A stretch of 64,000 nt of DNA from a bacterium (GTDB lineage: Bacteria > UBA8248). The first letter of the stretch is position 1. Every line of letters starts with the position of its first letter. The DNA lies in the NCBI GenBank assembly GCA_965203325.1, contig OZ241875.1, forward strand, positions 4,290,702-4,354,701. The letters run 5' to 3'. This document shows positions 13,033 to 42,497 of the stretch, in pieces. The position numbers and the translations under genes were made by a program. The notes under the pieces are model-generated. The model was not told the DNA's origin and did no database searches. It was given only the letters and a program-made list of their open reading frames with translations.

Positions 13033-13967
13033 GCCGGACCGCGTATTTCTGGACACCCGAATCTCTCATGCACGACAACGGCCGGCATGTGGAGAACGTC
13101 GAGCGCGCCAAACGCCTGGCGCCCGAGAGAATACTCCCCCAAGTCCCGTCGCTCCGACACATGGAGATTACACCGCACGACGCTAAGGAGTGGGTTCTGA
13201 GGGTGCATGAGGAATCGCACCACCGCTTCGTGCGCGAAGCGTGTGACGGCGGCAGGTGTATTCTCGATGGCGGAGATACGCTGGCGGGTCCGGGAAGCTA
13301 TGAGGCCGCCCTCGCCGCTGTCGATGCGGCCCTGAGCGCGGCGGATGCCGTCGTGGGTGGGGAGGCCGATAACGCCTTTTGCGCCGCGAGGCCTCCGGGA
13401 CACCACGCCTTGCCCCATCAGTCGATGGGTTTTTGCCTGTTCGCTACCGCTTCCATCCTGGTTCGGTATCTGCAGGAAAAACACGGCCTCCGGAGAATCG
13501 CCGTGGTGGATTGGGACGTGCATCACGGAAACGGCACGCAGGATACCTTCTGGCGAGATCCGGATGTTTTTTTCGTCTCCTTGCATCAGCATCCCCACTA
13601 TCCGGGCACGGGGCTCTCGGGCGAGACGGGGGAGGGAGCGGGCGAGGGTGCGACGCTCAACATTCCCGTCGCGGCGAGAACGCCCGAGGAGGAATACTTG
13701 GCGAAATTTCAGGAAAGCGTTATCCTCGCCATCGAGGCGCACGCGCCCGAAGCGATCATCGTATCGGCGGGTTTCGACGCGCACCGCGACGACCCGCTCG
13801 GAGGGCTGATGATCACCGAAGCCGGGTTCGCCCGCCTGACCGGATGGGTGAAGACGCTTGCCGAAAGCCTCTGCGGGGGGCGGCTTATCTGTCTTCTCGA
13901 AGGCGGATACAACCTCGACGCATTGGAGCGCTCCGTCGTCGCGCACTTGCGAGAACTTTCGGGGTAA
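13029..13967 (+). CDS. Histone-deacetylase-superfamily amidohydrolase (acetylpolyamine aminohydrolase / HDAH / AcuC-like)
   Basis: TTG start overlapping the dppB stop (TTGA). Contains the AYFWTPESLMHDNG and DWDVHHGNGTQD motifs characteristic of bacterial HDAC-like amidohydrolases. Confidence 0.85.
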   Translation: MSRTAYFWTPESLMHDNGRHVENVERAKRLAPERILPQVPSLRHMEITPHDAKEWVLRVHEESHHRFVREACDGGRCILDGGDTLAGPGSYEAALAAVDAALSAADAVVGGEADNAFCAARPPGHHALPHQSMGFCLFATASILVRYLQEKHGLRRIAVVDWDVHHGNGTQDTFWRDPDVFFVSLHQHPHYPGTGLSGETGEGAGEGATLNIPVAARTPEEEYLAKFQESVILAIEAHAPEAIIVSAGFDAHRDDPLGGLMITEAGFARLTGWVKTLAESLCGGRLICLLEGGYNLDALERSVVAHLRELSG

Positions 13968-14004
13968 CGGATTTGCACACCGGGCTTACAGACAGCCCAA
14001 AAAT

Positions 14005-14038
14005 TTAGTTGACTAACTAACTAAAAAAGATTTATATT
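14005..14038 (+). promoter_or_regulatory. Inverted repeat TTAGTT-gact-AACTAA overlapping a putative -35/-10 (TTGACT ... TATATT) upstream of the TetR gene
   Basis: Inverted repeat at 14005-14020 with TTGACT at 14009-14014 and TATATT at about 14033-14038, inside an AT-rich intergenic island. Sits 75 nt upstream of the TetR start, a typical autoregulatory operator arrangement. Confidence 0.35.
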
Positions 14039-14113
14039 CCATATAGCTTGTGGAACTGGCTTCGGCGTATTGGTTCGATGAACTGGATTTTCAACTTACC
14101 GGGGGGAGAGGGT

Positions 14114-14746
14114 ATGGCAGTGGCAACGGCGACGCCCAAAGGCCTCAAGGCGTCCGCTACGAAACAGAAAATCATCGAAGCGGCCGCGCGGCTCGTCTAT
14201 CACAGAGGGTTTCACGCCACGTCGCTCGATATGGTGGCGCAGGCCGCCGGGGTGAACCGGGGGAGTCTGTACTATTTTTTCCGCTCCAAGAAGAACCTGG
14301 GACTCGCCGTCATCGATCACTACGAATCGCTTCTTCATCAAAACTATCTTTCCCCCTCATTTGACACAAGGGCGAAGGGAAGCGAGAAAATAAGGCGGCT
14401 GGCGGAATCCTACGCCCGCATGCCGATTCAGGATTCCCCGTGCTGCGGATGCCCTGTCGGGAACCTTTCGCTCGAACTCAGCGCCATAGATGAGGAGTTG
14501 CGCGTTCGGCTGAAAGGGGTGTGGGACGGGGTTTTCGAGAGGATCGCCCACGTATTGGCGCAGTCCAAAGAGGAAGGCGACCTTCCGGGGGAGCTTGAGC
14601 CGCTCGCCCATGCGCGTTCTTTTTTCTCCCAGATTCAGGGCGCGCATATCATCGCGCGGTGTTCGCAGGATGAGGCGTCTTTGCGCGGAGACTGCGAGCG
14701 CGCTTTCATGAGCCTGCCCTGGACGCGGAAAGGGGAGTCGGAATGA
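14114..14746 (+). CDS. TetR/AcrR-family transcriptional regulator
   Basis: N-terminal HTH (KQKIIEAAARLVYHRGFHATSLDMVAQAAGVNRGSLYYFF) is the canonical TetR signature. RBS GGGGGAGAGGG precedes ATG 14114. Stop overlaps the next gene start (ATGA). Confidence 0.8.
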   Translation: MAVATATPKGLKASATKQKIIEAAARLVYHRGFHATSLDMVAQAAGVNRGSLYYFFRSKKNLGLAVIDHYESLLHQNYLSPSFDTRAKGSEKIRRLAESYARMPIQDSPCCGCPVGNLSLELSAIDEELRVRLKGVWDGVFERIAHVLAQSKEEGDLPGELEPLAHARSFFSQIQGAHIIARCSQDEASLRGDCERAFMSLPWTRKGESE

Positions 14747-28595: not shown

Positions 28596-29645
28596 TCAAC
28601 TCCCGTGCAACGGCGCCACGCCCACTTCTTCGGCTATCCGGTCCAAATCTTGTGCGAGGGCTTCTTTGATTGTGATGCCCTCGGTCAGGGCGGCCTGATA
28701 CCTGCGGTGCGCCCCTTCGCCGGGGATGCGGATTTCATCGAAGCCGGGCGCCAGGCCCGAGGCCTTGATGCGCGTCACGGCTTCATCCACCGCCGCCTCA
28801 TAGTCGCCGCCCAGGCATCTCTCCGGGTCAATCGCCATGGCGAACATCGGCAGGCCGAAGGGCTTGTCCGTCTCCAGCCAGTCGGGCTGGGCGGCGTCGA
28901 AGCCGTTGCCGGTAAGCGCTCCCGTCAGGAAGGTGAACATGAGCGCCAGGCCGTATCCCTTGTAATCGCCAAGTGGCAGCATGGTTCCCCTGGCGGCGAG
29001 CGTGGCGTCCGTGGTCGGGTTGCCCGAAGGGTCGAGCGCCCAGCCCTCGGGGATCGGCTCGCCCGTCCGGGCGGCCAGCAGCACGTAGCCTCTCGCCACC
29101 TTGGAGGTGGCGATGTCGAAGAGGATGGGATATTCCTGGTTCGAGGGAACCGCGAAAGCGACCGGGTTGTTCCCGATCATTCGCTCGTAACCGCCCCACG
29201 GGGCGAGGTTTCCCACCGCGCCGCTGATGACCACCCCGATCATCCCGTGTTCGAGCGCCATCGCGGCGAAATAGCCGATGTGGCCCGTGTGGGAGGACTT
29301 GCGGATAGCGGACGCCCCGATGCCGCCGACCTTCGCCTTCTCGATAGCGGCCTCCATGGCGCGACGCGCGACTACGGCGCTCATGCCGTAGTCCCCGTCC
29401 AGGAGCGTAAAAGCGGGCAGATCGGTGATGGTTCGCACACTGGGCTTCGGGTTCGCCGTCCCGTTTCTCAGGCGCTCCACGAAGACCCCGAAGCGAACGC
29501 ACCCGTGCGAACTCACGCCCCTCAGTTCGGCGTCCACAATCTGGGCCGCGCACGCATTGGCGTCCGCCTCGGGCAGGCCCAGTGCCTGGTAGACGCGCGC
29601 GAGATAGGCGTGAAGGTCTTTCGCGTGAACTTTGATGTCCGGCAT
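28596..29645 (-). CDS. Ldh2-family oxidoreductase, paralog B
   Basis: MPDIKVHAKDLHAYL..., DAELRGVSSHGCVRF, HTGHIGYFA. Start ATG 29645 with GGGAGA RBS; the track ORF extends to 29681. Confidence 0.8.
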   Translation of the reverse strand: MPDIKVHAKDLHAYLARVYQALGLPEADANACAAQIVDAELRGVSSHGCVRFGVFVERLRNGTANPKPSVRTITDLPAFTLLDGDYGMSAVVARRAMEAAIEKAKVGGIGASAIRKSSHTGHIGYFAAMALEHGMIGVVISGAVGNLAPWGGYERMIGNNPVAFAVPSNQEYPILFDIATSKVARGYVLLAARTGEPIPEGWALDPSGNPTTDATLAARGTMLPLGDYKGYGLALMFTFLTGALTGNGFDAAQPDWLETDKPFGLPMFAMAIDPERCLGGDYEAAVDEAVTRIKASGLAPGFDEIRIPGEGAHRRYQAALTEGITIKEALAQDLDRIAEEVGVAPLHGS

Positions 29646-29772
29646 GTTTTCTCCCGGCGCGGGCTTGAGGGCCGCGCGCAAACAAACCCACCGCCTTGTC
29701 TTGGCGGATGGGGAAAAGAGTGCTAAGAGCTATTGCGGTGAGTTTGCCTTTACACATGGAGGATTCGCAAGC

Positions 29773-30861
29773 ATGAAAGCGTGGCGTTTTTACGCCTTTG
29801 GCGATATGCGGTTGGATGAGGTGCCGGACCCCGAGGTGAAGCCGGGCTGGGCCGTGTGCAAGGTGCGGCGGGTGCAGCCGAGCATCACGGACGTGCAGAG
29901 GTCCTTGGGAATCGGAACCATCAATTCGGCGCTTTTGAGGGAAATGCTCGAAAAATATGCGCCCGTGCAGTTGCTGGGGCACGAGATGAGCGCGGAAGTC
30001 GTCGAGGTGGGCGATGGCGTCGAGCACTTAACTCCGGGCGACAGGGTATGCACCTCGGGCCACGTGCCGTGCCTCAATTGCAGTTTCTGCCGCGAGGGCC
30101 GGGAGATGTACTGCATCGACAAGCTGCACGTGGGCATCAACACGCCGGGCGCATTCGCCGAATACATCTCGCTTCCGGCGCACGGACTCGTCAGGCCGCC
30201 CCAGACGCTGGACGATTCATCCATCGCCTGTCTGCAGCCGCTTTCCTCCACGGTCGCCGCCATGCGCGATGCGAAGGTTCAGCCGGGCGAGACGGTGGCC
30301 ATCACCGGTCAGGGGGTCATGGGCCTCTATGCCTTACAGGCTGCGCGCACCTGCGGGGCGGGCGCCGTCTACGTGAGCGACGTGAAGGATGAAGCCCTTG
30401 CCTTGAGCCGCAAGTTCGGGGCGGATGAAGTGATCGACGCGCGGGTTGATGATCCCGTCGAGAGGGTGATGGAGATTACGGAGGGCAGGGGCGTCGACCT
30501 CGTCTTCGAGTGCGCGGGCGGGAACGCGGATCAGGGGCTTTCGGGCCACACCACCCTGCACCAGGCGACGCGCATGGTGCGCATCGGCGGGCGCGTCATC
30601 CAGGTCGCGGGTCTCATCGGAGATGTGAAATTCGACCCGGTCTTCATGCGCGCCCAGGGGGTTCAGTGGATTTACCCGGAAGGCCATGGCGCGGATACCG
30701 TGGCTCTGGGCGGAAAATGGGTGGCCAGTGGAAGGATCGACGTGAACTCTCTCATCACGCACGAGGAGCACGGCATCGAAAACCTGCCCCGCGTGATGGA
30801 GATCACCGACAAGAAGGCAGAGTACCGGGCCACGAACCCTTGCCAACTCGTTCTGGCTTAA
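29773..30861 (+). CDS. Zinc-dependent alcohol dehydrogenase (MDR superfamily)
   Basis: GHEMSAEVVEVG (catalytic Zn motif), structural Zn Cys4 (CTSGHVPCLNCSFCREGREMYC), GxGxxG (ITGQGVMG). RBS GGAGGA precedes ATG 29773. Confidence 0.85.
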   Translation: MKAWRFYAFGDMRLDEVPDPEVKPGWAVCKVRRVQPSITDVQRSLGIGTINSALLREMLEKYAPVQLLGHEMSAEVVEVGDGVEHLTPGDRVCTSGHVPCLNCSFCREGREMYCIDKLHVGINTPGAFAEYISLPAHGLVRPPQTLDDSSIACLQPLSSTVAAMRDAKVQPGETVAITGQGVMGLYALQAARTCGAGAVYVSDVKDEALALSRKFGADEVIDARVDDPVERVMEITEGRGVDLVFECAGGNADQGLSGHTTLHQATRMVRIGGRVIQVAGLIGDVKFDPVFMRAQGVQWIYPEGHGADTVALGGKWVASGRIDVNSLITHEEHGIENLPRVMEITDKKAEYRATNPCQLVLA

Positions 30862-30906
30862 GCAGCAGTATTTCTTCAGTTTTCATAATTTTCTAAGGAG
30901 AGAAAA

Positions 30907-31695
30907 ATGGACCTTGGGTTGAAGGGAAAGATCGCTATCGTGACGGGCGCGAGCCGGGGCATCGGACGTGAATGCGCGATCGCGCTGGCGAGAGAGGGCG
31001 CTCGCGTGTGCGTTACGGCGCGCGATGAGGCGCTTTTGGCTACGGCAGTGGAAGATGTGAACGCCGCAGGGGGCGAGGGAATGTCCGTCTCCTCCGATCT
31101 GAACTCTCTCGATGGCTGCAAGAAGGTGGTCGATGCGTGCGTCGCGAATTTCGGCGGCGTGGACATCCTCGTCAACAGCGCGGGCGCGGCGCGTGGCGGA
31201 GACATTCTTGAGCTCGACGCGGAGTTTATTACCGAGGCGCTCACGCTCAAGACATATGGGTATCTGCGCATGTCCCAGTTGGTGATCCCCCACATGAAGA
31301 AAAACGCCTGGGGCCGCATCGTGAACATCGCAGGCGGCGCGGGCACGAGCCCGGCGCGGGGGAACATCCCCACGAGTGCGGCGAACATCACGGTGCTCAA
31401 CAACACGAGGGCGCTCTCGGACGCCGTGGCGGGAGATGGGATTCAGGTGAATACCGTATGTCCGGGCATGACGAACACGCAGCGCGCGCGCGACCTCATG
31501 CAGGGACCCGCGGACAAGGCCGGCAAGGACGTGGAGGAGTTCTTGAAAGAAGTCGGCGCGAGGACGCCCGCCGGCAGAATCGCCGAGCCCGAGGAGGTGG
31601 CGAACGTCGCCGCGTTCCTGGCCTCCGCCGCGTGTTCTTACGTGAACGGCACTTCCCTCTACATGGACGGCGGCGGCCGCCGGGCGACGCCGTAG
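30907..31695 (+). CDS. SDR-family oxidoreductase
   Basis: KIAIVTGASRGIGRE, NSAG, YxxxK. RBS AAGGAGA. Confidence 0.85.
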   Translation: MDLGLKGKIAIVTGASRGIGRECAIALAREGARVCVTARDEALLATAVEDVNAAGGEGMSVSSDLNSLDGCKKVVDACVANFGGVDILVNSAGAARGGDILELDAEFITEALTLKTYGYLRMSQLVIPHMKKNAWGRIVNIAGGAGTSPARGNIPTSAANITVLNNTRALSDAVAGDGIQVNTVCPGMTNTQRARDLMQGPADKAGKDVEEFLKEVGARTPAGRIAEPEEVANVAAFLASAACSYVNGTSLYMDGGGRRATP

Positions 31696-31783
31696 GTAGG
31701 AACGGACTCGTTTTCTCCTCCGGGCGTGATTCTCAAGCGCCGCCCGGAGGATTTTTCTTGATATTTCGAGGGATTAGACAGAG

Positions 31784-32857
31784 ATGGCGAAACTTTTCGA
31801 TGAATTTTCTTTGCGGGGCGTGACGCTCAGGAACCGGATTTGCGTGTCCCCCATGTGCCAGTACAGCGCTGAGGACGGCAAGCTTACCGACTGGCATCTC
31901 GTGCACCTTGGCGCCCGCGCGGCAGGCGGCGCGGGCCTGGTGATGGTCGAGATGACGAACGTGGAGGCGCGGGGACGCATTACGCACGGTTGCTCCGGCA
32001 TTTGGTCGGATGAGCATGTTGAACCGCTGGCGCGGGTCGCGCGCTTCGTCGCCGGCCAGGGGGCCGTCGCCGGGATTCAGATAGGCCACGCAGGACGCAA
32101 GGGCAGCTGCGCGCCCACCTGGGAGGGCGGGGGCTATCTCTCCGATGAGGAGGGCGGATGGGAGATCGTGGCGCCGAGCGCGATCCCGTTTCACGAGAAG
32201 GCGCGCGTACCCAGGGCGTTGAACGTCGAGGAGATCGCCGTGATTCAGGAGGCGTTTCGCCAGGGCGCGAGACGAGCAGACGAAGCGGGTTTCGGGTGGC
32301 TCGAGATTCACGGCGCGCACGGGTATCTGTTCCACAGCTTCCATTCTCCGGTTTCGAATCACAGAGATGATAACTACGGCGGCAGCTTCGAGAACCGCAT
32401 CCGTTTCACGGTGGAGACGGTCCGGATTGTGAGGGAACAATGGCCGGAGGATAAACCGCTCGCCATACGCCTCTCGTGCACCGATTATTACGAGGGCGGC
32501 TGGACGCTCGATGAAACGGTTGAGTTGGCGAAAATCCTCAAAACCGAAGGAGTCGACCTCATCGATTGCAGTGGGGGCGGGGGAACGCCGCTGGCGAAGA
32601 TTCCTGTGGGTCCGGGCTATCAGGTGCCGCTATCGCAAGCCGTGCGTTCGGGAGCCGACATACCCACCGCCACCGTGGGCATGATCACCCAGGCGTGGCA
32701 GGCGGATCAGATTGTCCGAAACGGTGAGGCCGACCTCGTTTTCATGGCGCGCGAGATGCTGCGCGAGCCTTATTGGCCGCAAAAGGCGGCCGCCGCACTC
32801 GGCGTGATGGATGAGGCCTATGTCGCCGACCAATACCACCGCGCCCACGGCAGATGA
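31784..32857 (+). CDS. Old-Yellow-Enzyme-family NAD(P)H:flavin oxidoreductase (YqjM/NemA-like)
   Basis: ICVSPMCQYSA, HAGRKG, HGAHGYLFHSFHSPVSNHRDDNYGGSFENR are classic OYE motifs. Confidence 0.85.
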   Translation: MAKLFDEFSLRGVTLRNRICVSPMCQYSAEDGKLTDWHLVHLGARAAGGAGLVMVEMTNVEARGRITHGCSGIWSDEHVEPLARVARFVAGQGAVAGIQIGHAGRKGSCAPTWEGGGYLSDEEGGWEIVAPSAIPFHEKARVPRALNVEEIAVIQEAFRQGARRADEAGFGWLEIHGAHGYLFHSFHSPVSNHRDDNYGGSFENRIRFTVETVRIVREQWPEDKPLAIRLSCTDYYEGGWTLDETVELAKILKTEGVDLIDCSGGGGTPLAKIPVGPGYQVPLSQAVRSGADIPTATVGMITQAWQADQIVRNGEADLVFMAREMLREPYWPQKAAAALGVMDEAYVADQYHRAHGR

Positions 32858-33005
32858 CGCTCAAATCACCGCTCATCGTGATTTCTGCCGCGTCCTGTGG
32901 CCAGCTACCGCGCAAACATTGACAGGGCTCAAGGGGCCGTGTTGTAATTTCTGCACTCGCAAACAGTTGAATTTCTGAGTCCTTTTCCACACGGGAGAAA
33001 AGTCG

Positions 33006-34190
33006 ATGAACCACATTTTTTCGCGCGTCTTGAAACGCGCTACTTTCTGGGTTGCGTTCGTCGTAGCGATTGGTTTGTTGGGCGGCCCGCTCGTTGGTGA
33101 CGTGCCGGCGGCCAAGAAGAAACCGCTTCGCTTCGGGGTCGCCGACCCCCTGACGGGGCCTGCCGCGATTTTCGGCAAAGATCAGATGCAGGCGGTGCGC
33201 TGGGCGGTCGAGGACATCAACGCCAAGGGCGGCGTCAACGGCCATCCGCTCGAGGCCATCATTCTGGATCATCAGGCGAAGCCCGAGGTCGGCATCGCGG
33301 TGGTCAACCGCTTCGTCCACGTGGAGAAGGTCCCCGTGTACATCACCGCGTTCAGCAACGTGGTCAAGGCGGTCGCGCCCATCGCGAACCGCGAGAAGGT
33401 GCTGATGCTCAGCGTGGGCGCGAACGCGCCGGCCATCGCACGGCTGGGCGATTACGTCTATACGACTTTCCCGCTGGCCGACGTGGATATGAACGCCTTG
33501 GGCAAATACGCTTATCAGAAGATGGGCAAACGCCGCGCCGCCGTCTTGCACGTGAACCACGAGACGGGCCGGGACGGCGCCAAGGTTTTCAGCAACAGCT
33601 TCAAGAAGGCCGGCGGCAAAATCGTCGTCTATGAGTCCTATGAGCAGGAGCGGTCGGACTTCACCGGCCTGGTGCTCAAGGTGAAAGCGGCGAATCCCGA
33701 CATCATCCACATCCACAGCGTGATCCGCGATTTCACGGCCGTCGTCGCGCAGATGCGTCAGCTCGGTGTGAAGACCCAGATCACCAGCTACCAGACAGCC
33801 TTCAACCCAAAGATGATCCAGCAGTTGGGCAAGGGGGCCGAGGGCATCATCGTGACCGCGCTGGCTCCCAGCGTGGAGGACAACAAGAACCTGCCCGCCT
33901 ATATCGAGCGCTGGAAAAAGGCGTACAAGCGCATGCCCATCGGGCTGCCCTATACGCAGTATTTCTACGATGCGCCCTATATCGTTGCGGCGCTCTACAA
34001 ATGGGTGCTGGACAAGAAGCTGCCGATCACGGGCGAGAACATGCGCAAGGCGCTGGTGGCAATCAAGACGTTCGAGCAGCCCTTGACCAATACGGTGACG
34101 ATCAACGACGACCACACGGTCAAGAAACCGGTCTATTTCTGGCAGGTGAAGGGTGGTAAATTCACGTTAATCGGTTCCCAGAAGGACTGA
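33006..34190 (+). CDS. ABC branched-chain amino acid (LivK/LivJ-type) substrate-binding protein
   Basis: Signal peptide. LRFGVADPLTGPAAIFGKDQMQAVRWAVEDINAKGGVNGHPLE is typical of Peripla_BP_6 Leu/Ile/Val-binding proteins. Confidence 0.8.
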   Translation: MNHIFSRVLKRATFWVAFVVAIGLLGGPLVGDVPAAKKKPLRFGVADPLTGPAAIFGKDQMQAVRWAVEDINAKGGVNGHPLEAIILDHQAKPEVGIAVVNRFVHVEKVPVYITAFSNVVKAVAPIANREKVLMLSVGANAPAIARLGDYVYTTFPLADVDMNALGKYAYQKMGKRRAAVLHVNHETGRDGAKVFSNSFKKAGGKIVVYESYEQERSDFTGLVLKVKAANPDIIHIHSVIRDFTAVVAQMRQLGVKTQITSYQTAFNPKMIQQLGKGAEGIIVTALAPSVEDNKNLPAYIERWKKAYKRMPIGLPYTQYFYDAPYIVAALYKWVLDKKLPITGENMRKALVAIKTFEQPLTNTVTINDDHTVKKPVYFWQVKGGKFTLIGSQKD

Positions 34191-34209
34191 TCCCGAATGT
34201 TTCCTCTGC

Positions 34210-34245
34210 GTGGGCGCGCCGACGGGCGCGCCCACCGGGATTTTA
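34210..34245 (+). promoter_or_regulatory. Perfect 11-bp stem-loop (GTGGGCGCGCC-gacg-GGCGCGCCCAC) + TTTT between binding-protein and permease genes
   Basis: Seen directly: stem 34210-34220 / 34225-34235, TTTT at 34241-34244. Located 20 nt after the livK-like stop and 20 nt before livH. Candidate intra-operon attenuator. Confidence 0.4.
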
Positions 34246-34264
34246 CCGTGTGTGACGTCAAGCC

Positions 34265-35212
34265 ATGCTGACCTGGGGGATTTTGGGGCAGCTCCTGTGG
34301 ACGGGCTTCGCCGCCGCGACCTATTACTGCCTGTTCGCGGTCGCCTTCTCACTCGTCCTCAAAGTCAACAAGATATGGAACTTCGCCCAGGCGGGGGTGA
34401 TGGTGTTCGCCTACTACTCCCTGCTCGTGGCGTTCCGGCACTGGGGTTTACCGCTGGTTCCCGCCCTGGTTTTCGGGCTCCTGGTAACGCTTGGCGTATC
34501 GCTCGCCCTCGAGCGCTATGCCTTCATGGTTTTCCGCGACCGCAACTCCTCGATCCTGACCCTGTTCATCTTCACGATCGTGTTTTCTGAGTTCTCGGTC
34601 TACCTCATGGAACTGGTCTTCGGAACCGAACCGCAGACGCTTTACCCGAGCCTGTTGTGGCCCGTCGACTTATACGCCGGCATTGCGATCAGCCACTGGG
34701 ACTTGATGGCGATTGCGGTGACGGCGGTGCTGATGCTGCTCCTCTACCTGTTCATCCACCGCACGCGCTACGGCCGGTATCTGATTGCCGTCGCCGATAA
34801 CGAGAATCTGGCCGAAATATACGGTATCAGCCGAAAGCGCGCCTACGGCGTTTCGATCTCCATCGCTGCGGTGCTCATCACCGCCGGCATGTATCTCTTC
34901 GGGACCAAGGCGGCGCTGTTTCCCTCCACGCCGCTCCAGCATCTGTTGATCTTCGCCGTCATCGCGACGATTCTGGCCGGGATCGGCAACATCTTTCGCG
35001 CCGGAATCGCGGCGGTCGCGCTGAGCCTCATACAGGCTTTCAGCATTCTCGTCATCGCCTCCAAATGGCAGGCGTTGCTGGCCTATATTCTGATATTCGT
35101 CGTCATCATCTTCTTCCCGCGCGGTTTCGCCTTGCCGCGCAAGCTGAGCGGGCTGGTGAGACCATCGGGACGTTCCGCCGCCGTGGCGGTGGCCGACCCT
35201 GCGGGAGACTGA
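34265..35212 (+). CDS. Branched-chain amino acid ABC permease (LivH-like)
   Basis: 315 aa, ~8 TM; sequence and size match the LivH/BraD family. Confidence 0.8.
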   Translation: MLTWGILGQLLWTGFAAATYYCLFAVAFSLVLKVNKIWNFAQAGVMVFAYYSLLVAFRHWGLPLVPALVFGLLVTLGVSLALERYAFMVFRDRNSSILTLFIFTIVFSEFSVYLMELVFGTEPQTLYPSLLWPVDLYAGIAISHWDLMAIAVTAVLMLLLYLFIHRTRYGRYLIAVADNENLAEIYGISRKRAYGVSISIAAVLITAGMYLFGTKAALFPSTPLQHLLIFAVIATILAGIGNIFRAGIAAVALSLIQAFSILVIASKWQALLAYILIFVVIIFFPRGFALPRKLSGLVRPSGRSAAVAVADPAGD

Positions 35213-35219
35213 ACCGAAA

Positions 35220-36134
35220 ATGGAATATATCCTCACCGTCATGGTGCTCATCGGGATCAACGTGATCCTCGCTACGAGCTTCAACCTCATTCTGGGGTAC
35301 GGCGGGCTGATGAGCGTCGCCCATCCCATCTTCTATGCCATCGGGGCTTATTGCTCAGGACTTCTGGCGATTCACCTGCAGATTCCGGTTCCGCTCTCTA
35401 TCCTGATAGGAGCAGCAATCGCGATGGTGCTTTCGTTCGGCGTGTCTTTGCCCTCGCTTCGCGTGTCGGGCGATTACCTCGTCATCGCCAGCATCGGGTT
35501 TCAGTTGGGTATACTGCACGTTATCAACAACCTCGAATTCACCGGCGCGGCCGGCGGGCTGACCAACATTCCGGTGCTGAACGAAGGCCCCTCGAGAAGT
35601 CTCGTCTTCGTCCTGCTCATCGCGGTCGTCGCAGCCTGCGCGGTTATGCTTGTGGGCTGGATCGTCGAAGGCGATTACGGGCGGGCCATCACCGCCATGC
35701 GCAACGACGAGGAGGCCTTCAGCGCCCTGGGCCGTAACGCGATGAACATCAAGATCGTCTTGTTCGCCATCGGCTCGGGCATGGCCGGCCTGGCGGGCGC
35801 GCTCTATGCCCATTATTTCGCCTACGTCACGCCCGAGCAGTTTGGCATATTCACTTCCGCGGCCCTGTTGACGATGGTGGTCGTGGGCGGCGCCGCCACG
35901 ACGTGGGGACCCCTGGTGGGCGCGGTGCTCCTGACGACCCTTCCGCAAGCCATCACGTTTCTTGGTCTGCCCGTCTCCATCATGGCGCCGCTTCAGGGCG
36001 TCATCTACACGACGCTCGTTATTTCCTTCCTCTTCACGCGGCCCCAGGGCCTGACGGGAGGCACCAGGGGCGGTGGAGGGCTCGAGGCCTGGAGCGCGAG
36101 CGCGGCCTTCAGGGCGAGGAGGGATGCGGAGTGA
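35220..36134 (+). CDS. Branched-chain amino acid ABC permease (LivM-like)
   Basis: 304 aa, multi-TM. Sits between LivH and the ATPase genes. Confidence 0.8.
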   Translation: MEYILTVMVLIGINVILATSFNLILGYGGLMSVAHPIFYAIGAYCSGLLAIHLQIPVPLSILIGAAIAMVLSFGVSLPSLRVSGDYLVIASIGFQLGILHVINNLEFTGAAGGLTNIPVLNEGPSRSLVFVLLIAVVAACAVMLVGWIVEGDYGRAITAMRNDEEAFSALGRNAMNIKIVLFAIGSGMAGLAGALYAHYFAYVTPEQFGIFTSAALLTMVVVGGAATTWGPLVGAVLLTTLPQAITFLGLPVSIMAPLQGVIYTTLVISFLFTRPQGLTGGTRGGGGLEAWSASAAFRARRDAE

Positions 36135-36901
36135 GCGCAATCGTCAGGGTCGAGGATCTGCACAAGAGTTTCGGCGGAATCGTGGTGGCGGACGACGTCA
36201 ACCTGAGCTTCGAAGCGGGCGAGATCGTCGGCCTCATCGGTCCCAACGGCGCGGGCAAGACGTCTTTGTTCAACCTGATCTCGGGCGTCATTCCCCCCGA
36301 TGCGGGATCGATATTCGTGGAAAGCCATCGCGTGGATCAACTGCCCATGCACCACCGTGCGCGGATCGGCCTGGCCCGAACCTGGCAGAACACGCGCATG
36401 TTTCACTCCATGTCGGTGATAGACAACCTGCTGATAGCAACGCGGCGCTACCCCGGAGAATCGCTGGCGCGCATTCTGTTTCGTCGCCGCTCGGTCGACG
36501 CCTTCCGCCAGGAGGCGACGGAAAAAGCCATGGTGCTTCTCGAGCGGGTAGGGCTCGCGGACAAGATGCACGAGATGGCGATCGAGCTCTCCTACGGCCA
36601 GCAGAAGCGGATCGGCCTGGCCCGGGCGCTGATGAGCGACGCGGCGTGCCTGTTGCTGGACGAACCCATGGCGGGGGTCGAAGGGCAGGCGTATGAAACG
36701 ATCATCCGTGTGATCCGAGAAGAGGCCCAGGCCGGTCGCGCGGTCTGCGTGGTGGAGCACAACATCTCGTTTATCCGCGACATCAGCGATCGCACGGTTT
36801 TCATGTTCAACGGATGTGTTCTGGCCAGCGGATCCGTCGACGAACTGACGCGCGATTCGCAACTCACGGACCTGTACTTCGGCGGCGAACACCCGCAGTA
36901 A
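36131..36901 (+). CDS. Branched-chain amino acid ABC ATPase (LivG-like)
   Basis: GTG start overlapping the livM stop (GTGA). Walker A GPNGAGKTS, signature LSYGQQKR, Walker B LLLDEP. Confidence 0.85.
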   Translation: MSAIVRVEDLHKSFGGIVVADDVNLSFEAGEIVGLIGPNGAGKTSLFNLISGVIPPDAGSIFVESHRVDQLPMHHRARIGLARTWQNTRMFHSMSVIDNLLIATRRYPGESLARILFRRRSVDAFRQEATEKAMVLLERVGLADKMHEMAIELSYGQQKRIGLARALMSDAACLLLDEPMAGVEGQAYETIIRVIREEAQAGRAVCVVEHNISFIRDISDRTVFMFNGCVLASGSVDELTRDSQLTDLYFGGEHPQ

Positions 36902-36914
36902 TCGAGAGAGAGCG

Positions 36915-37598
36915 ATGTTCGAAATCCAAAACCTCACGGCCCGCTACGGGCCGCTTGTCGCCGTGAACGATGTGTCGCTGTCTTTCGATACCGGTGTGCG
37001 GATGGGAATTTTCGGTCACAACGGTTCGGGCAAGTCGACGCTCCTCAAATGCCTGGTCGGCGGTGTCAGGGATGTTTCCGGCGCCGTGGCTTTTGGTGGT
37101 TCGACTATCGTTCCCGATCAGGTTCACCGCAACGTCATGCTGGGAATCGGCTTCGTGCCGCAGGTCCAGAACGTTTTCCCGAATCTCACGGTCGAGCAGA
37201 ATCTCCACATTGCGGGTTCGAAATCAGACTCCTCGTTTCTCGATGAAGCCTATGCCCTTTTTCCGCTGCTGCGGGAACGCCAGGACCAGCTTGCAGGCGA
37301 CATGAGCGGTGGAGAGCAGCAGATGCTCGCCGTCGCGCTGGCCTTGATGACGAGGCCGCAAGTCCTCCTGCTCGACGAACCGACGGCAGGCCTCGCGCCC
37401 GCAATCGTGAAGAACGTGCTGGGCTCGCTCTCGCGCATCAACACGGAACTCGGTACCGGGCTGATCCTCGTCGAGCAGAACGTGCTTGCCGCCCTGGATG
37501 TCGTCGAGCGCGCCATCGTGCTCAAGGGCGGGCGCGTGGTATTCGACGGCGCGAGCGAAGAACTGCGCGCAAAGGAAGATTTGTGGGCCTGGTTCTGA
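36915..37598 (+). CDS. Branched-chain amino acid ABC ATPase (LivF-like)
   Basis: Walker A GHNGSGKST, signature MSGGEQQM, Walker B LLLDEP. Confidence 0.85.
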   Translation: MFEIQNLTARYGPLVAVNDVSLSFDTGVRMGIFGHNGSGKSTLLKCLVGGVRDVSGAVAFGGSTIVPDQVHRNVMLGIGFVPQVQNVFPNLTVEQNLHIAGSKSDSSFLDEAYALFPLLRERQDQLAGDMSGGEQQMLAVALALMTRPQVLLLDEPTAGLAPAIVKNVLGSLSRINTELGTGLILVEQNVLAALDVVERAIVLKGGRVVFDGASEELRAKEDLWAWF

Positions 37599-37605
37599 CT
37601 CCGTA

Positions 37606-37629
37606 AATCGTCGGTGCGATTGCTTTTTT
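37606..37629 (+). terminator. Weak intrinsic terminator after liv operon (AATCG-tcggtg-CGATT + GCTTTTTTATTTT)
   Basis: 5-bp stem followed by a T-tract, 8 nt after the livF stop. It overlaps the convergent gene's stop. Confidence 0.35.
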
Positions 37630-38998
37630 ATTTTACCCCGATGGCGTCAATCTGGACCAGCGCTTCCGCGACCGGGCCGGGGCCGTGCACTATCACGCAC
37701 TCGAACGCGGGCAGATCCTCGTCGATGAAAGTTTCGCGAACCGCCTCGTAGACCGCCAGGTCCGCCGGATCGGAGAGATACACCCGGGTCATGGCGATGT
37801 CTTCCAGTTCCATGCCCGCACCTGAAGCGCTTGCGCGCAACTGCTCCCACGCCATCCAGCATTGCGCGGCGAGACCTGGCCGCCGCTCTATATCTTCCAT
37901 AGGCAACACGGCGCGCCGACCCGCCTCGGGAAGGGTGTCCGTGCTCCGGACGATCTCTCCCGCCTCGTCGACGCCCACCATGCCCGAGAAGTAAACAACC
38001 GGCCCCGCCTGCGTGACGGCGGGAGCCGCGAAGGGCGCCTCCCCCGGCCAGGGGAACGATTGGCGGGCGAGTCCGCTTTTCCGATCCATGGCGGTGATTT
38101 CAATCTCGATGCGCGTGCCGCGGTGGCCCACCTCGTCAAATCCCACGACGCAAAGCGATGGCTGGACCTCCGGGAAGAAGTGGGTGTGCACCCGGTGGAA
38201 CGTGGAGAAATCGCGCAGGTCGCCCAGGAAAATCGACACGTTCACGACATCTTCCATATCCATGCCGTTGCCTGTCAGCGTACGGCGCAATTCGTTGTAA
38301 ACGTACCAGGTCTGGGATGCGATCGGACCGTGGCGGCTATCGGGATGGCTGCGCCCCGTCGAGAGGAAACGACCTTCCTCCGGCACGTCGTCATAAGAGT
38401 TGACCAGCGGCTTTCCGGGTTCTGCCGTCTTGATCGGGATGTGCCCGGCGAAGAAGGCGAACGGGCCCGAGCGTATTGCCTGACAGTAATGTGAGGCCGC
38501 GGGCAGGTCGGCGTCGTAGACGTCGGTCATCACCTGACGCTCGCCGAACACGCCGCCGGCTTCCGTGCAGGCGGCGATGGCGTCGACCCCGATCCAGTGT
38601 CTGCCGCGTCCGATCACGTCCGCAACTCCCAGTCCGCTGCTGGGAGCGGGCGTCGGCTGCCAATGCACCCGGACGTGTTCGTAGCTGGGGAAATAACGCT
38701 TGTCGCGCTGCCAGATGTGCTGGCGCAGCACCTGATCGGAGGGCGTTCCCGCCGCATGGAGAACTTTTTCGAGGCTGTCGTGTACCGCCCAGGAGTCGGC
38801 GACAACCCTGCCCTCGGTGAGGTCTGCGAGCGGATAGCCCTGCATTTGCTCGCGTCCCGCCTCGGGCAGGTCCGCGAACCCCGCCGGAACGTCGGGCCTT
38901 AAGCCTGAGACGAACAAAAGTTCGCCGGCCTTGACCGCCACCGGGTAGGGCGGGAAAGCGGGGCTGACATCCTCACAAACGATAGGAGTCTTCTTCAT
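37628..38998 (-). CDS. Triple tandem RidA/YjgF/TdcF-like domain protein (456 aa)
   Basis: Three ~150-aa repeats, each with the RidA-like core (AVKAGELLFVSG; AIRSGPFAFFAGHIP; VTQAGPVVYFSGMVG) and the C-terminal ...IEI.A motif. Confidence 0.7.
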   Translation of the reverse strand: MKKTPIVCEDVSPAFPPYPVAVKAGELLFVSGLRPDVPAGFADLPEAGREQMQGYPLADLTEGRVVADSWAVHDSLEKVLHAAGTPSDQVLRQHIWQRDKRYFPSYEHVRVHWQPTPAPSSGLGVADVIGRGRHWIGVDAIAACTEAGGVFGERQVMTDVYDADLPAASHYCQAIRSGPFAFFAGHIPIKTAEPGKPLVNSYDDVPEEGRFLSTGRSHPDSRHGPIASQTWYVYNELRRTLTGNGMDMEDVVNVSIFLGDLRDFSTFHRVHTHFFPEVQPSLCVVGFDEVGHRGTRIEIEITAMDRKSGLARQSFPWPGEAPFAAPAVTQAGPVVYFSGMVGVDEAGEIVRSTDTLPEAGRRAVLPMEDIERRPGLAAQCWMAWEQLRASASGAGMELEDIAMTRVYLSDPADLAVYEAVRETFIDEDLPAFECVIVHGPGPVAEALVQIDAIGVK

Positions 38999-39083: not shown

Positions 39084-39845
39084 CTACATCGCCAAAGTGC
39101 CGCCGTCACACGATATGAAGGCGCCGTTCATGAAATCATTCTCGTCCGAGGCCATGAAGAGCGAGACCTCCGCCATCTCCTCGGGAGTCGCAAAGCGGTT
39201 CACGGGTATCCGGGGCAGTTTCGCCCTGGCGCGCTCCGGGTCGTTGATGTGAATCTCTTTCACGCGTTCGCTCTCGGTGGTGCCCGGCATGAGGCAATTG
39301 ACGCGCAGCCCCAGAGGGCCGAGTTCCACGGCGAGGGCGCGCGTCAGGTTGTGCATGGAGGTCTTCGTGGCGCAGTAGAGGGCGTTGCCGGGCACCCCGC
39401 GCTCGCCGTCGATGGAGCCGATCATCAGTATCTTGCCCTTGCCCTGGGGCGCCATAAGCCTGGCCGCCTCGCGCGTGGCGATGAAAACGGATTTCGCATT
39501 CACCTCATACAACTCGTCGATCTGCTCGTCTGTGAACTCCAAAAAACTCTTGTGTGCCCGCATGGCGGCGCAGTTCACCATGATGTCGAGACCGCCGAGG
39601 AACTGCGCGCCGTCACTCATCACGTCGTTCGCTTTGCGCGCATCCCTCAGGTCGTAGCATCGTCCATCGATTTTAACGCCTCCCGCGCTGCAATCGGCGA
39701 TGATTCCGTCGAGGCGCGCCTGGTTGAAACCGCCCGCCGCCCAGATGGATGCGCCCTCCGCGCTGAATCTGCGTGTGATGGCCGCGCCGATGCCCGATGA
39801 GGCGCCCGTGACGATGACTCTTTTTCCTTCCAGCTTGCCCGGCAT
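39084..39845 (-). CDS. SDR-family oxidoreductase
   Basis: KRVIVTGASSGIGAA, NCAA, YCATKTS (YxxxK). Confidence 0.85.
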   Translation of the reverse strand: MPGKLEGKRVIVTGASSGIGAAITRRFSAEGASIWAAGGFNQARLDGIIADCSAGGVKIDGRCYDLRDARKANDVMSDGAQFLGGLDIMVNCAAMRAHKSFLEFTDEQIDELYEVNAKSVFIATREAARLMAPQGKGKILMIGSIDGERGVPGNALYCATKTSMHNLTRALAVELGPLGLRVNCLMPGTTESERVKEIHINDPERARAKLPRIPVNRFATPEEMAEVSLFMASDENDFMNGAFISCDGGTLAM

Positions 39846-39869: not shown

Positions 39870-40754
39870 CTATTCCTCATCCGGCAGAAGCGCGGATTCT
39901 CCCATCGAAAGCGGGTCGCGCATCGGCCAGCGCCCGGCGTCCACCTCGGTGATGAACTCGAGAACGACCCGGTTGAACATGGCGGGTTCTTCGAGGTTGA
40001 TGAGGTGGCCGGCGTTGGGGAAGGTGACGAGGGCAGCCGTCTGAATGTTGCGCTTCATGAACAGCCCTGGTTCCAGGCAGGGGAAATCTTCATCCCCCGT
40101 GAGGACGAGCGTGGGCACGGAGCAGTTCTTCATCTGCTCTCCGAGTTCGTAGACCGAGGGTCTTACGCTTTGCACCCCGCGCATCGTGTTGGCGCAGCCC
40201 AGGGGGGAATGGCTCATGAAGTGATCGATGAATTTCTGATAGCCGATGGCGTCTTTTCGTTTGAGCTGCATTCTTGTGGGACCGGCGGTGTAGACCGGGC
40301 CGAACTTCTCCATGCCCTCGTTCAGGAACCGGTCGGCCACGGCTTCAGCGTCTTTTTGGAATCGTTCACGCTGATCCATGTCGGAGCCGTAACCGCAGCC
40401 TGCCACAACGATGGAGCGGGTAAGTTCCGGGTGGCGGAGGCCTAAATGGAGGGTCGCATAGCCGCCCATCGAAAGTCCCACGACATGGGCGGGTGCGAGG
40501 TCCAGATCCCTGATGAGGCCGGCCAGATCGTTTGCGGCGATGTCCTGGCTGTATTGTGATGCGTCTTCGGGCACCTCGGAGGGCGGGAATCCTCTCGCGT
40601 TGTAGGTGATGACCCTGTATCTGCGGTTGAAATAGCGGACCTGATCCTCCCAACTGCGGCAGTCGCCCGCGAATTCATGAACGAAGACGATGGGCGCGCC
40701 CTCGCCGCTGGTTTCGTAATACAGACTGACGCCGTTTGTTCTCACTTCGGGCAT
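39870..40754 (-). CDS. Alpha/beta-fold hydrolase
   Basis: IVFVHEFAGD, nucleophile elbow VVGLSMGGY (GxSxG), 294 aa. Confidence 0.8.
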   Translation of the reverse strand: MPEVRTNGVSLYYETSGEGAPIVFVHEFAGDCRSWEDQVRYFNRRYRVITYNARGFPPSEVPEDASQYSQDIAANDLAGLIRDLDLAPAHVVGLSMGGYATLHLGLRHPELTRSIVVAGCGYGSDMDQRERFQKDAEAVADRFLNEGMEKFGPVYTAGPTRMQLKRKDAIGYQKFIDHFMSHSPLGCANTMRGVQSVRPSVYELGEQMKNCSVPTLVLTGDEDFPCLEPGLFMKRNIQTAALVTFPNAGHLINLEEPAMFNRVVLEFITEVDAGRWPMRDPLSMGESALLPDEE

Positions 40755-41060: not shown

Positions 41061-42497
41061 TTGTTCAAGAATGGGAGAAAGAACTTGTCTACGGCGCCGG
41101 AGAAGCCAAGGCTCGCGATTCACAGAAAATCTGAAAGGAAGTTGCAGTGGGAGACAATCTTCGTCATCGGGATGATTCATCTTCTCGCCCTCATGGCATT
41201 TGACCTGGATTATTTCAGCGTTTCCGGCCTCGTGGTGGGAATCGTGATGTATTTCGTCGCCGGAATGGTGGGCGTGACGATGTCCTACCACAGACTCCTG
41301 ACGCACAGGAGTTTCCAGACGTATAAGCCGGTGGAGTATTTCCTGACTTTCTGCGCTTGCCAGGCGCTTCAGAGCGGCCCAATCGAGTGGGTAGCGATGC
41401 ACCGCATTCACCACAAGGAATCGGACGAGGAGCCGGATCCGCATTCCCCGCTCGTGAATTTCCTGTGGGCGCACGCCGGGTGGCTTTTCGTCAGCCTGCC
41501 GGACGCGCACACCTACAATGAGTATTCTCGCTTCGCGAAGGATTTGCACCGCGACAAGTGGCAGCGCTTTTTCGACATGTTCTTTTTCCCCATCTATGTC
41601 TTGACCGCGGTGGCCATTTACTTCGCCGGGGAGGTGTACGGCGGCCTGGGCATGTCCTGGCTCGTCTGGGGCGTGTTCGTGCGCACGGTCGTTTTGTGGC
41701 ACTGCACCTGGGCAGTGAATTCGGTAACGCACACCTTCGGCTACCGCAATTACAATACGGATGAGGAGAGCACCAACAACTGGCTCGTCGCAATTTTCTC
41801 CTTCGGCGAGGGTTGGCACAACAACCATCATGCGGACCAGCGCTCGGCCGCTCACGGCCAGCGGTGGTTCGAGGTGGACATCACCTACCGGCTTATCAAG
41901 ATCATGGAACTCTTCGGGCTTGTCTGGGGGGTGAGAGAGCCGAGCCAGCGGGTCGTGGCGAAAAGACTCGACATCATGGTGGATGAAGAGGGCTTGCGCG
42001 CCTCCGAGGCGAGAAGGTTGGATACAGAGGACGCCCGCTCCGAAGTGCTCCACACGATGACCGACCCCACGATGCCGCTGGAAGTCCCCCGTATGCCCTC
42101 ACTGACCGAAGCGAGCGAGGCGGCGATGAAATCGGCCCGAAAGGCCATGGAATCGGTCAACACGGCGCTCGCGCACGCTTCTCACGCGCTTCGACACAAA
42201 GAGAAAGAGGATAATGCCGACCAAGCCGTTCGCCAGGTGCTGGAAAAGGGCAAGGATACGGCGATGGCGGCCATCGAGCAGGCAAAATACGCCGCGGCGG
42301 AAGCCGCGGAGTTCTCCGCACAGGCGAGCGCATTTCTGGCGGATGCGAAAGACAAGGCGACGGAATCCGCCCATCAGGCGGCTGAAAGAGCGAAGTCGCT
42401 CGCACAGGAAGCAAGCGATGCGGCTTCGAAAGCCGCCGATGAAATTGCAGTCGCGTTCAAGGGAATCGACAGGCCGGTCATCACCTCCGCGATATAA
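41061..42497 (+). CDS. Acyl-CoA/acyl-lipid delta-9 desaturase with ~170-aa C-terminal Ala/Glu/Lys-rich helical extension
   Basis: Histidine boxes HRLLTHRSF, HRIHHKESD, and NNHHADQRSAAHG. The C-terminal tail is low-complexity and amphipathic (AAIEQAKYAAAEAAEFSAQASAFLADAKDKATESAHQAAERAKSLAQEASDAASKAADE). TTG start as in the track; true start uncertain. Confidence 0.8.
   Translation: MFKNGRKNLSTAPEKPRLAIHRKSERKLQWETIFVIGMIHLLALMAFDLDYFSVSGLVVGIVMYFVAGMVGVTMSYHRLLTHRSFQTYKPVEYFLTFCACQALQSGPIEWVAMHRIHHKESDEEPDPHSPLVNFLWAHAGWLFVSLPDAHTYNEYSRFAKDLHRDKWQRFFDMFFFPIYVLTAVAIYFAGEVYGGLGMSWLVWGVFVRTVVLWHCTWAVNSVTHTFGYRNYNTDEESTNNWLVAIFSFGEGWHNNHHADQRSAAHGQRWFEVDITYRLIKIMELFGLVWGVREPSQRVVAKRLDIMVDEEGLRASEARRLDTEDARSEVLHTMTDPTMPLEVPRMPSLTEASEAAMKSARKAMESVNTALAHASHALRHKEKEDNADQAVRQVLEKGKDTAMAAIEQAKYAAAEAAEFSAQASAFLADAKDKATESAHQAAERAKSLAQEASDAASKAADEIAVAFKGIDRPVITSAI

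Follow-up and report, generated by a model that had tools for sequence, protein, structure and literature searches.

Gene and module architecture

In the work presented here we analyzed a gene in a stretch of bacterial DNA of 64,000 nucleotides (GenBank assembly GCA_965203325.1, contig OZ241875.1). The whole stretch is referred to as the window, and all positions are counted from its first letter. The gene encodes a conserved, cytoplasmic protein made of three homologous Rid/YjgF-fold modules, in the following called the triple-Rid protein. The first-pass annotation, made from the sequence alone, had placed this open reading frame (ORF) at 37628-38998 and described its product as three tandem RidA/YjgF-like domains that would form a covalent pseudo-trimer with three non-identical interface sites. 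The ORF list agrees with this position, with an ATG start on the minus strand and a product of 456 residues. A GGAGG sequence is located 11 nt 5' of the ATG. The gene and its parts are as follows.

37628 to 38998, minus strand: triple-Rid protein gene, 456 residues, complete, stop codon at 37628-37630 (from the ORF list and homologues)
38543 to 38998, minus strand: module 1 (residues 1-152), the most derived Rid module (Pfam 21.1 bits, HHalign 98%)
38624 to 38650, minus strand: module 1 beta-5 strand PAPSSGLGV (residues 117-125), in place of the RidA strand 'PARSCVEV' that carries Arg105
38075 to 38542, minus strand: module 2 (residues 153-308), the best conserved module (Pfam 65.4 bits)
38306 to 38389, minus strand: module 2 insertion motif DVPEEGRFLSTGRSHPDSRHGPIASQTW (residues 204-231), with invariant R216, S217, H218, D220 and R222
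38093 to 38137, minus strand: module 2 C-terminal motif DEVGHRGTRIEIEIT (residues 288-302), with invariant E289, H292, E298 and E300
37631 to 38074, minus strand: module 3 (residues 309-456), Rid fold, least constrained (Pfam 38.6 bits)

The domain scan that the first-pass annotation had proposed was carried out with the Pfam model PF01042 (Ribonuc_L-PSP), which matched the whole protein in three stretches with 112.9 bits in total at a cut-off of 27.3. Scanned alone, residues 150-312 (E = 6e-18, 65.4 bits) and 305-456 (E = 1.2e-9, 38.6 bits) scored over this cut-off, and residues 1-155 (E = 3.3e-4, 21.1 bits) under it. A hidden Markov model (HMM) of the Rid module places the three modules at residues 15-142, 168-303 and 322-454. 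Furthermore, the modules were compared with each other by HHalign, with profiles taken from the three thirds of an alignment that comprised 58 full-length homologues. Modules 1 and 2 were matched with 98% probability and an E value of 2e-13, as were modules 1 and 3, and modules 2 and 3 with 99.3% and 7e-21. With E values of 2e-13 to 7e-21 the three-module repeat is therefore real and far beyond chance, and at the level of the sequence profiles all three modules, module 1 included, are mutually homologous. Both the Pfam and the HHalign results confirm the three tandem RidA/YjgF-like domains. The opposite outcome considered in the first-pass annotation, a protein in which one module alone has the Rid fold, was not found, as all three modules align and the predicted structure repeats the fold three times.

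Predicted structure of the triple-Rid protein

A structural model was calculated with AlphaFold2 from the 58-sequence alignment of homologues. The 456-residue chain was predicted as one compact model with a mean predicted local distance difference test (pLDDT) value of 93.4 and a predicted template modelling (pTM) score of 0.93, low confidence being confined to the linker between modules 1 and 2 (residues 160-170). The order of strands and helices recurs three times in the model, each module being a Rid/chorismate-mutase-like beta-alpha-beta-alpha-beta-beta unit, and the modules probably pack as the subunits of the usual Rid homotrimer do.

In a Foldseek search of the PDB, the top whole-chain matches were the chorismatases 5ag3, 5a3k and 4bps (E values of 5e-13 to 1e-12), aligned almost completely over 414-421 columns to chains of 331-335 residues with target-normalised template modelling (TM) scores of 0.60-0.66. 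For single modules, TM scores of 0.85-0.89 were obtained to 3LYB and of about 0.8-0.87 to the monomers of RidA, UK114, human HRSP12, AmnE and YabJ. The high pTM score, which speaks for a confidently predicted arrangement of the modules relative to each other, and the chorismatase matches support the reading of the protein as a single-chain pseudo-trimer.

Since chorismatases are the best full-length structural matches, an enzyme of that kind, cleaving or rearranging chorismate or a related enolpyruvyl compound, was considered as well. We regard this as extremely improbable. Identity to the chorismatases is merely 11-15%, they gave no PDB sequence match at E <= 0.01, and no chorismatase model is among the NCBIfam and Pfam matches. 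The modules are far nearer to 3LYB and the Rid proteins, and the genes around the triple-Rid gene speak of transport and catabolism, not of secondary-metabolite or quinone biosynthesis.

Distribution of triple-Rid proteins and the lineage of their modules

More than 100 full-length homologues of 456-467 residues and 50-96% identity were retrieved by a word-indexed search. In a pattern scan in which 185,579 species were each represented by a single genome, 82 loci were confirmed. Those in Nitrospinota metagenome-assembled genomes (MAGs), many of them from sponge metagenomes, encode proteins of 77-96% identity, and the window is evidently of this lineage. The loci in Alpha- and Betaproteobacteria (Paracoccaceae, Rhizobiales, SAR116, Burkholderiales) encode proteins of 41-61% identity; isolated loci were found in Actinobacteria and Vicinamibacteraceae. 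When 1.84 billion representative proteins were scanned exhaustively with HMMER, 858 matched at E <= 1e-3, of which 60 did so at E <= 1e-30.

The retrieved proteins, 269 in number, were then surveyed with an iterated Rid-module HMM. Exactly three modules are present in 203 proteins of at least 370 residues, which fall into three groups. The first is the family of the window protein itself (n=122), where every module carries an insertion of 22 residues and lacks the arginine that corresponds to Arg105 of RidA. The second consists of other triple proteins of the insertion type (n=67), 60 of which are likewise without this arginine. Proteins without the insertion form the third group (n=14), and five of them (P0258, P0221, P0246, P0232 and P0251) retain Asn56, Asn88, Arg105, Pro114 and Glu120 of RidA in nearly every module. 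One surveyed protein (P0215, 803 residues) has six Rid modules in one chain after an N-terminal signal-like segment and may, judged by this arrangement, represent two pseudo-trimers linked covalently. The only rare Rid fusions mentioned by Niehaus et al. have two or four domains (PMC4433059). Another protein (P0091, 625 residues) appeared to be a fusion of the three Rid modules with a VOC/methylmalonyl-CoA-epimerase-like domain. It was rejected as probably a frameshift or assembly artefact, as it is the only member of its cluster and its Rid C-terminus alters shortly before the junction. The link between the triple-Rid and VOC genes is therefore based on their adjacency in 16 loci.

According to the HMM survey, the insertion amounts to about 22 extra residues in every module of the window protein as compared to 0-4 in canonical RidA and 3x-RidA proteins. 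In modules 1 and 3 it carries the motif [DT][LV]PE[AE]GR. Insertion and motif are common to all three modules, to 3LYB and to the single-domain proteins P0226, P0242 and P0263. 3LYB is also the best PDB sequence match for a single module (module 2; E 8e-18, 34% identity). As insertion and motif are held in common with 3LYB and these single-domain relatives, they point to internal triplication of a 3LYB-like ancestor. Thus, the sequences suggest that the triple-Rid protein most likely arose by internal triplication of an insertion-bearing Rid domain of the 3LYB type without the arginine, and not by fusion of RidA genes.

Loss of the RidA pocket residues

Seven family-defining residues line the inter-subunit pocket, namely Tyr17, Gly31, Asn56, Asn88, Arg105, Pro114 and Glu120, and the two sides of a RidA pocket, that of Arg105 and that of Glu120, are contributed by different subunits (TdcF structure paper, PMC1884159). 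Arg105 is essential to imine hydrolysis, and the Rid4-7 subfamilies without it 'presumably serve other functions' (Niehaus et al., PMC4433059). The modules of the triple-Rid protein were mapped onto the E. coli RidA sequence, which is identical to PDB 1qu9_A. Three of the seven residues are retained in module 2 (Tyr, Gly, Glu), two in module 1 (Tyr, Gly) and one in module 3 (Gly). Module 1 has Y18, S31 and G32, with Ser at the Arg105 position and Gly137 at that of Glu120. In module 2, Y171, G185 and E298 correspond to Tyr17, Gly31 and Glu120, and the Arg105 position is taken by Leu or Val depending on the alignment register. Module 3 has Phe at the Arg105 position and Gln449 at the Glu120 position. 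An equivalent of Glu120 is thus present in module 2 alone.

The same pattern holds throughout the family. In none of the 122 members is Arg found at the mapped Arg105 position of any of the three modules; this position is occupied by Ser in module 1, by Leu, Met or Ile in module 2, and in module 3 by hydrophobic residues that vary, mostly Phe or Leu. The Glu120 position reads Gly/Glu/Gln over modules 1, 2 and 3 in 120 of the 122. Apart from one stray Arg/Lys at a single position in module 3, the beta-5 strands of every module are without Arg in the 58-sequence alignment, and the conclusion that the arginine has been lost is therefore independent of the alignment register. In the beta-5 strand of module 1, P119, S120, S121, G122 and G124 are invariant in these 58 sequences, which have no Arg or Lys there, and relatives with about 35% identity still have the strand in the form 'EPSSGG'.

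These data bear on the first-pass annotation in different ways. Its covalent pseudo-trimer is supported as far as architecture is concerned, with three modules in one chain, a compact model of high pTM score and chorismatases as structural matches, and the three prospective interface sites clearly differ from each other. The RidA-like function that it implied does not hold, as the catalytic arginine is absent from all modules of all homologues. By these sequence criteria the family is not RidA.

The database names of the homologues ('Rid family hydrolase', 'enamine deaminase RidA', '2-iminobutanoate/2-iminopropanoate deaminase', the last given by the source to P0046, P0060, P0068, P0069, P0072, P0074 and P0086) imply a covalently linked RidA trimer in which all three enamine/imine deaminase sites are active. 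In favour of this, PF01042 matches the protein three times, and TIGR00004 ('Rid family detoxifying hydrolase') gave the best match among the NCBIfam models. We nevertheless consider three deaminase sites very improbable. The essential Arg105 (PMC4433059) is missing from all modules in all 122 members, and of the seven pocket residues (PMC1884159) modules 2, 1 and 3 keep only three, two and one. All RidA-type NCBIfam models stay under their cut-offs (TIGR00004 93.7 vs 106.25, NF008490 44.4 vs 222, RutC 66 vs 169.1). Moreover, the canonical 3x-RidA proteins with Arg in every module form a separate group without the insertion. The naming of family members as deaminases is probably an over-annotation, because none of the modules of any member examined has the arginine on which this activity depends.

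Asymmetric conservation of the three modules

The modules differ strongly in the degree of their conservation. In the 58-sequence alignment, 22 columns of module 1, 29 of module 2 and 6 of module 3 are invariant. Distant full-length relatives of about 35% overall identity are 44-58% identical in module 2, 30-38% in module 1 and 15-25% in module 3. In module 1 these relatives preserve exactly Glu107 and the stretch Pro119-Ser120-Ser121-Gly122-x-Gly124, and in module 2 Tyr171, Gly185, Glu298 and Glu300 (signature YGEE), Arg216, His218, Asp220 and Arg222 of the insertion (signature RHDR) as well as His271, Glu289 and His292. Neither of the two faces of module 3 nor the Glu120 side of module 1 is preserved in them. 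The first-pass annotation had proposed three interface sites; the pattern of conservation favours one functional pocket, at most two.

Modules 1 and 2 are rich in invariant polar positions (His, Glu, Asp, Arg, Ser), and these residues also bear on the idea of a non-catalytic ligand-binding, sensor or chaperone protein built on the Rid scaffold. Many Rid proteins are without known activity, and the catalytic arginine has been lost here, as would be expected for such a protein. Against it stand these invariant residues and the tight operons with enzymes and a transporter, not with regulators, that are described below, and we judge a non-catalytic role improbable.

Genomic context and transporter linkage

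The neighbourhood is as the first-pass annotation had described it, the triple-Rid gene being convergent with the liv operon and co-directional with genes for a short-chain dehydrogenase/reductase (SDR) and a hydrolase. It lies downstream of the latter two. The following neighbouring genes are relevant here.

33006 to 37598, plus strand: operon of a Liv-type (HAAT family) ATP-binding cassette (ABC) transporter, convergent with the triple-Rid gene (Pfam Peripla_BP_6, E 1e-64)
33006 to 34190, plus strand: LivK
34265 to 35212, plus strand: LivH
35220 to 36134, plus strand: LivM
about 36140 to 36901, plus strand: LivG
36915 to 37598, plus strand: LivF
39084 to 39845, minus strand: SDR oxidoreductase, directly upstream of the triple-Rid gene in the same operon (Pfam adh_short_C2, E 4.6e-49)
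39870 to 40754, minus strand: alpha/beta hydrolase, first gene of the three-gene operon (Pfam Abhydrolase_1), of the esterase/enol-lactonase/MCP-hydrolase type

The LivF reading frame ends at 37598, leaving a gap of 29 nt to the triple-Rid gene. For the hydrolase, PcaD-like and MenH-like NCBIfam matches stayed under their cut-offs and the PDB relatives are generic. For the SDR, a PDB search at the strict threshold of E <= 1e-35 gave no match. The hydrolase family was found in 17 Nitrospinota loci only, and the SDR likewise occurs as a partner only in loci of the Nitrospinota type.

To survey the context, ORFs from 80 related loci and the window were clustered. Across these loci, a transporter is the sole partner common to the different clades. 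An orthologous Liv-type system accompanies the triple-Rid gene in the window and in ten alpha- and betaproteobacterial loci (L019, L020, L022-L024, L028, L033, L034, L054 and L068). The proteins of these loci are identical to those of the window to 66-80% for LivK, 52-66% for LivH, 60-66% for LivM, 47-57% for LivG, 43-64% for LivF and 45-61% for the triple-Rid protein. From such comparisons, LivKHMGF together with the triple-Rid protein behaves as a module that is shared, and has probably been exchanged, between Nitrospinota and Proteobacteria. The higher conservation of LivK relative to the triple-Rid protein suggests horizontal transfer of the transporter-plus-triple-Rid module and a strong constraint on the ligand. 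In three of the alphaproteobacterial loci (L019, L023 and L034), LivK is 74-80% and the triple-Rid protein 56-61% identical to its counterpart in the window. The nearest solved relatives of LivK are amino-acid binders of the LivJ/LivK type in the HAAT family, with modest similarity of a generic kind.

In about 27 other proteobacterial loci, genes for TctC-TctB-TctA lie directly downstream on the same strand. Further proteobacterial partners are a VOC protein barely over the NCBI cut-off for methylmalonyl-CoA epimerase (16 loci, directly downstream in most), a MenB/BadI-like crotonase, a family III CoA-transferase, a muconate-cycloisomerase-like MR/MLE enzyme and an Amidohydro_2 protein. A tblastn search of the 64-kb window for the VOC protein, the MenB-like crotonase, the CoA-transferase, MR/MLE, Amidohydro_2 and TctABC found none of them. 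As far as gene neighbourhoods can tell, the context supports a role in breaking down a small molecule that the cell imports, without defining the reaction.

Partners in Paracoccaceae also include a second triple-Rid paralogue and a single-domain Rid protein. In seven loci of this family (L039, L035, L040, L042, L057, L073 and L075), two distinct triple-Rid paralogues and the single-domain Rid gene are grouped around one TctCBA; in L039 the Rid genes are located at 7989-9386, 12555-13853 and 13954-14385. These two-paralogue loci adjoin genes for the VOC protein, MenB-like crotonase, CoA-transferase III and MR/MLE enzyme. The Paracoccaceae paralogue of 432 residues has the RidA arginine in its middle module only (Ser/Arg/Thr).

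On the other side of the window locus, upstream of the liv genes (29632-32857, plus strand), lie a gene for a Zn-dependent alcohol-dehydrogenase-like protein, an SDR gene and a gene for an old-yellow-enzyme-like flavin oxidoreductase, all named by sequence. They are kept in Nitrospinota loci (clusters c7, c5 and c15) and may form one catabolic island with the triple-Rid operon. A fatty-acid desaturase gene (41061-42497, plus strand; PF00487 at residues 59-260) with an Ala-, Glu- and Lys-rich C-terminal extension of about 170 residues is kept in 15 Nitrospinota loci (cluster c13). Clusters c20, c28 and c30 and the ORF at 32742-34115 on the minus strand (457 residues, opposite LivK) were rejected as antisense shadow ORFs, i.e. 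artefacts of ORF calling. In this GC-rich DNA, such long ORFs cluster as if they formed conserved families of their own, since it is the genuine gene on the opposite strand that is conserved. A promoter and terminator scan was uninformative, and Rfam and tRNA scans found nothing.

The residue pattern and the transporter could together also fit a single-site imine or enamine deaminase in which an arginine of the module 2 insertion, R216 or R222, replaces Arg105 and which takes part in degrading an amino acid that enters through the Liv system. Both arginines are invariant and preserved in the distant relatives, two residues of the RidA pocket, Glu298 and Tyr171, are still present, and the co-conserved binding protein is nearest to LivJ/LivK-type amino-acid binders. 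However, no conserved neighbour is an amino-acid oxidase, a dehydratase or another imine-generating enzyme dependent on pyridoxal phosphate or flavin adenine dinucleotide. The partners in Proteobacteria point to CoA-ester and lactone chemistry instead, and the Rid proteins without the arginine that have been assayed so far, e.g. Rid7, were inactive (PMC4433059). A single-site deaminase therefore appears unlikely, though it merits being kept in mind.

Proposed pocket and function

The data show the three-module architecture, the mutual homology of the modules, the absence of the arginine, their unequal conservation and the link to a transporter. From the conservation pattern and the transporter linkage we infer the location of the pocket, its catalytic residues and the kind of chemistry. 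Because the Arg105 and Glu120 sides come from different subunits in RidA, and because residues of modules 1 and 2 are conserved together, a single pocket between these two modules would be the most economical reading. Module 2 would keep the ancestral pocket residues Tyr171, Gly185 and Glu298 and add Arg216, His218, Asp220 and Arg222 of its insertion. Module 1 would supply the invariant Glu107 and the P-S-S-G-L-G strand where RidA has Arg105. Module 3 would mainly occupy the third position of the barrel, with a role that is probably structural. The protein would then be an enzyme that is active as a monomer. Its one principal pocket would lie where modules 1 and 2 meet and be capped by the module 2 insertion; Glu298 might serve there in acid-base catalysis, and an arginine of the insertion might bind the carboxylate of the substrate. 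This substrate could be a small compound, either amino-acid-like or a carboxylate, that is taken up through the adjoining transporter, i.e. the Liv-type ABC system here and TctCBA elsewhere. For the reaction, our best guess is a step of hydrolysis or isomerisation within a catabolic route.

Taken as a whole, this reading of the triple-Rid protein as a single-chain Rid pseudo-trimer, derived by triplication of a 3LYB-like domain and acting as an enzyme with one pocket between modules 1 and 2 on the ligand of its transporter, has in our opinion a slightly better than even chance of being correct. We are highly confident of the architecture and moderately so of the single-pocket model, and have little confidence in any particular chemistry. 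Several points weigh against it. The assignment of the pocket to modules 1 and 2 draws on co-conservation, which is confounded by kinship among the sequences. The conserved residues H271, E289 and H292 may, to judge from the alignment, form a second pocket facing module 3 or a metal site, and the triple-Rid protein could still oligomerise. Finally, neighbours other than the transporter vary by clade and the family has no characterised member, so that substrate and reaction remain guesses.

A bolder proposal, which we advance tentatively and rate clearly below even, is that the triple-Rid proteins are an unrecognised enzyme class. They would be asymmetric Rid pseudo-trimers in which two of the three pockets have been abandoned and the third catalyzes a reaction other than deamination on the ligand of the co-inherited transporter. 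In that case module 1 would contribute its Ser-Ser-Gly strand to the remaining pocket, and module 2 Glu298 together with Arg216, His218, Asp220 and Arg222 of the insertion. If true, this would provide the first functional handle on Rid proteins without the arginine and would define a catabolic route common to Nitrospinota and to marine and soil Proteobacteria. Rid proteins are ubiquitous. Irrespective of the reaction, the family offers unusually tractable clues to those without the arginine, namely a fixed asymmetric residue pattern that singles out one pocket and a transporter that accompanies the gene across phyla and has a ligand open to experimental identification.

Comparison with known systems

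The nearest solved relative of the single modules, 3LYB (KP1_3112, a 'putative endoribonuclease' of 165 residues from Klebsiella pneumoniae), has the same insertion and is without Arg at the RidA position, but it is a single-domain protein. The chorismatases FkbO/Hyg5 (4bps, 5a3k, 5ag3) are the best whole-chain structural matches and have the same global topology. They differ from the triple-Rid protein by their length of about 330 residues, the lack of insertions, the low identity given above and another genomic context. Juneja et al. 2014 (J Mol Biol) reportedly described the chorismatases as monomers with a pseudo-threefold symmetry like that of the RidA trimer and a single active site. In general, chorismatases are pseudo-trimers of the YjgF fold in one chain and likewise a case of subunit concatenation followed by loss of symmetry.

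In the 'Toblerone' fold of cyanuric acid hydrolase and barbiturase (AtzD), three YjgF-like units have been concatenated into a new enzyme (PMC3758960). Its active site is located in a central barrel with three Ser-Lys dyads, which sets it apart from the triple-Rid protein. The latter had no Pfam match to the Toblerone family (only PF01042 and a weak chance match), and this family was absent from the top 50 Foldseek matches. The triple-Rid protein would be another case in which subunits were concatenated and symmetry was then lost, as in cyanuric acid hydrolase. The Rid4-Rid7 proteins, whose function was described as 'completely unknown' (PMC4433059), resemble the triple-Rid protein in being without the arginine required for imine hydrolysis. 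However, they are single-domain homotrimers, and Rid4 and Rid7 have Trp in place of Arg.

Closest in overall layout are the proteins named '3x-RidA' in 2015, e.g. EF_0115 of Enterococcus faecalis, which were presumed to be covalently linked trimer units (Niehaus et al., PMC4433059). Like these, the window protein has three Rid domains in tandem in one chain of roughly 380-460 residues. The canonical representatives in our survey (P0258, P0221, P0246, P0232 and P0251) keep the arginine and have no insertion, whereas the window protein is without the arginine, carries the 22-residue insertions and has unequal modules. By sequence it matches 3x-RidA in architecture, but not in domain type. A literature search found no paper on the triple-Rid family or on 3LYB/KP1_3112, and multi-Rid-domain proteins only in Niehaus 2015.

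Overall, the concatenation of YjgF-fold units is already established, and the three-module architecture has been published and will not surprise the specialist. New as compared to these systems are the Rid lineage that bears the insertion and is without the arginine, the fixed inequality of its modules, which is consistent with one pocket, and the transporter module conserved across phyla.

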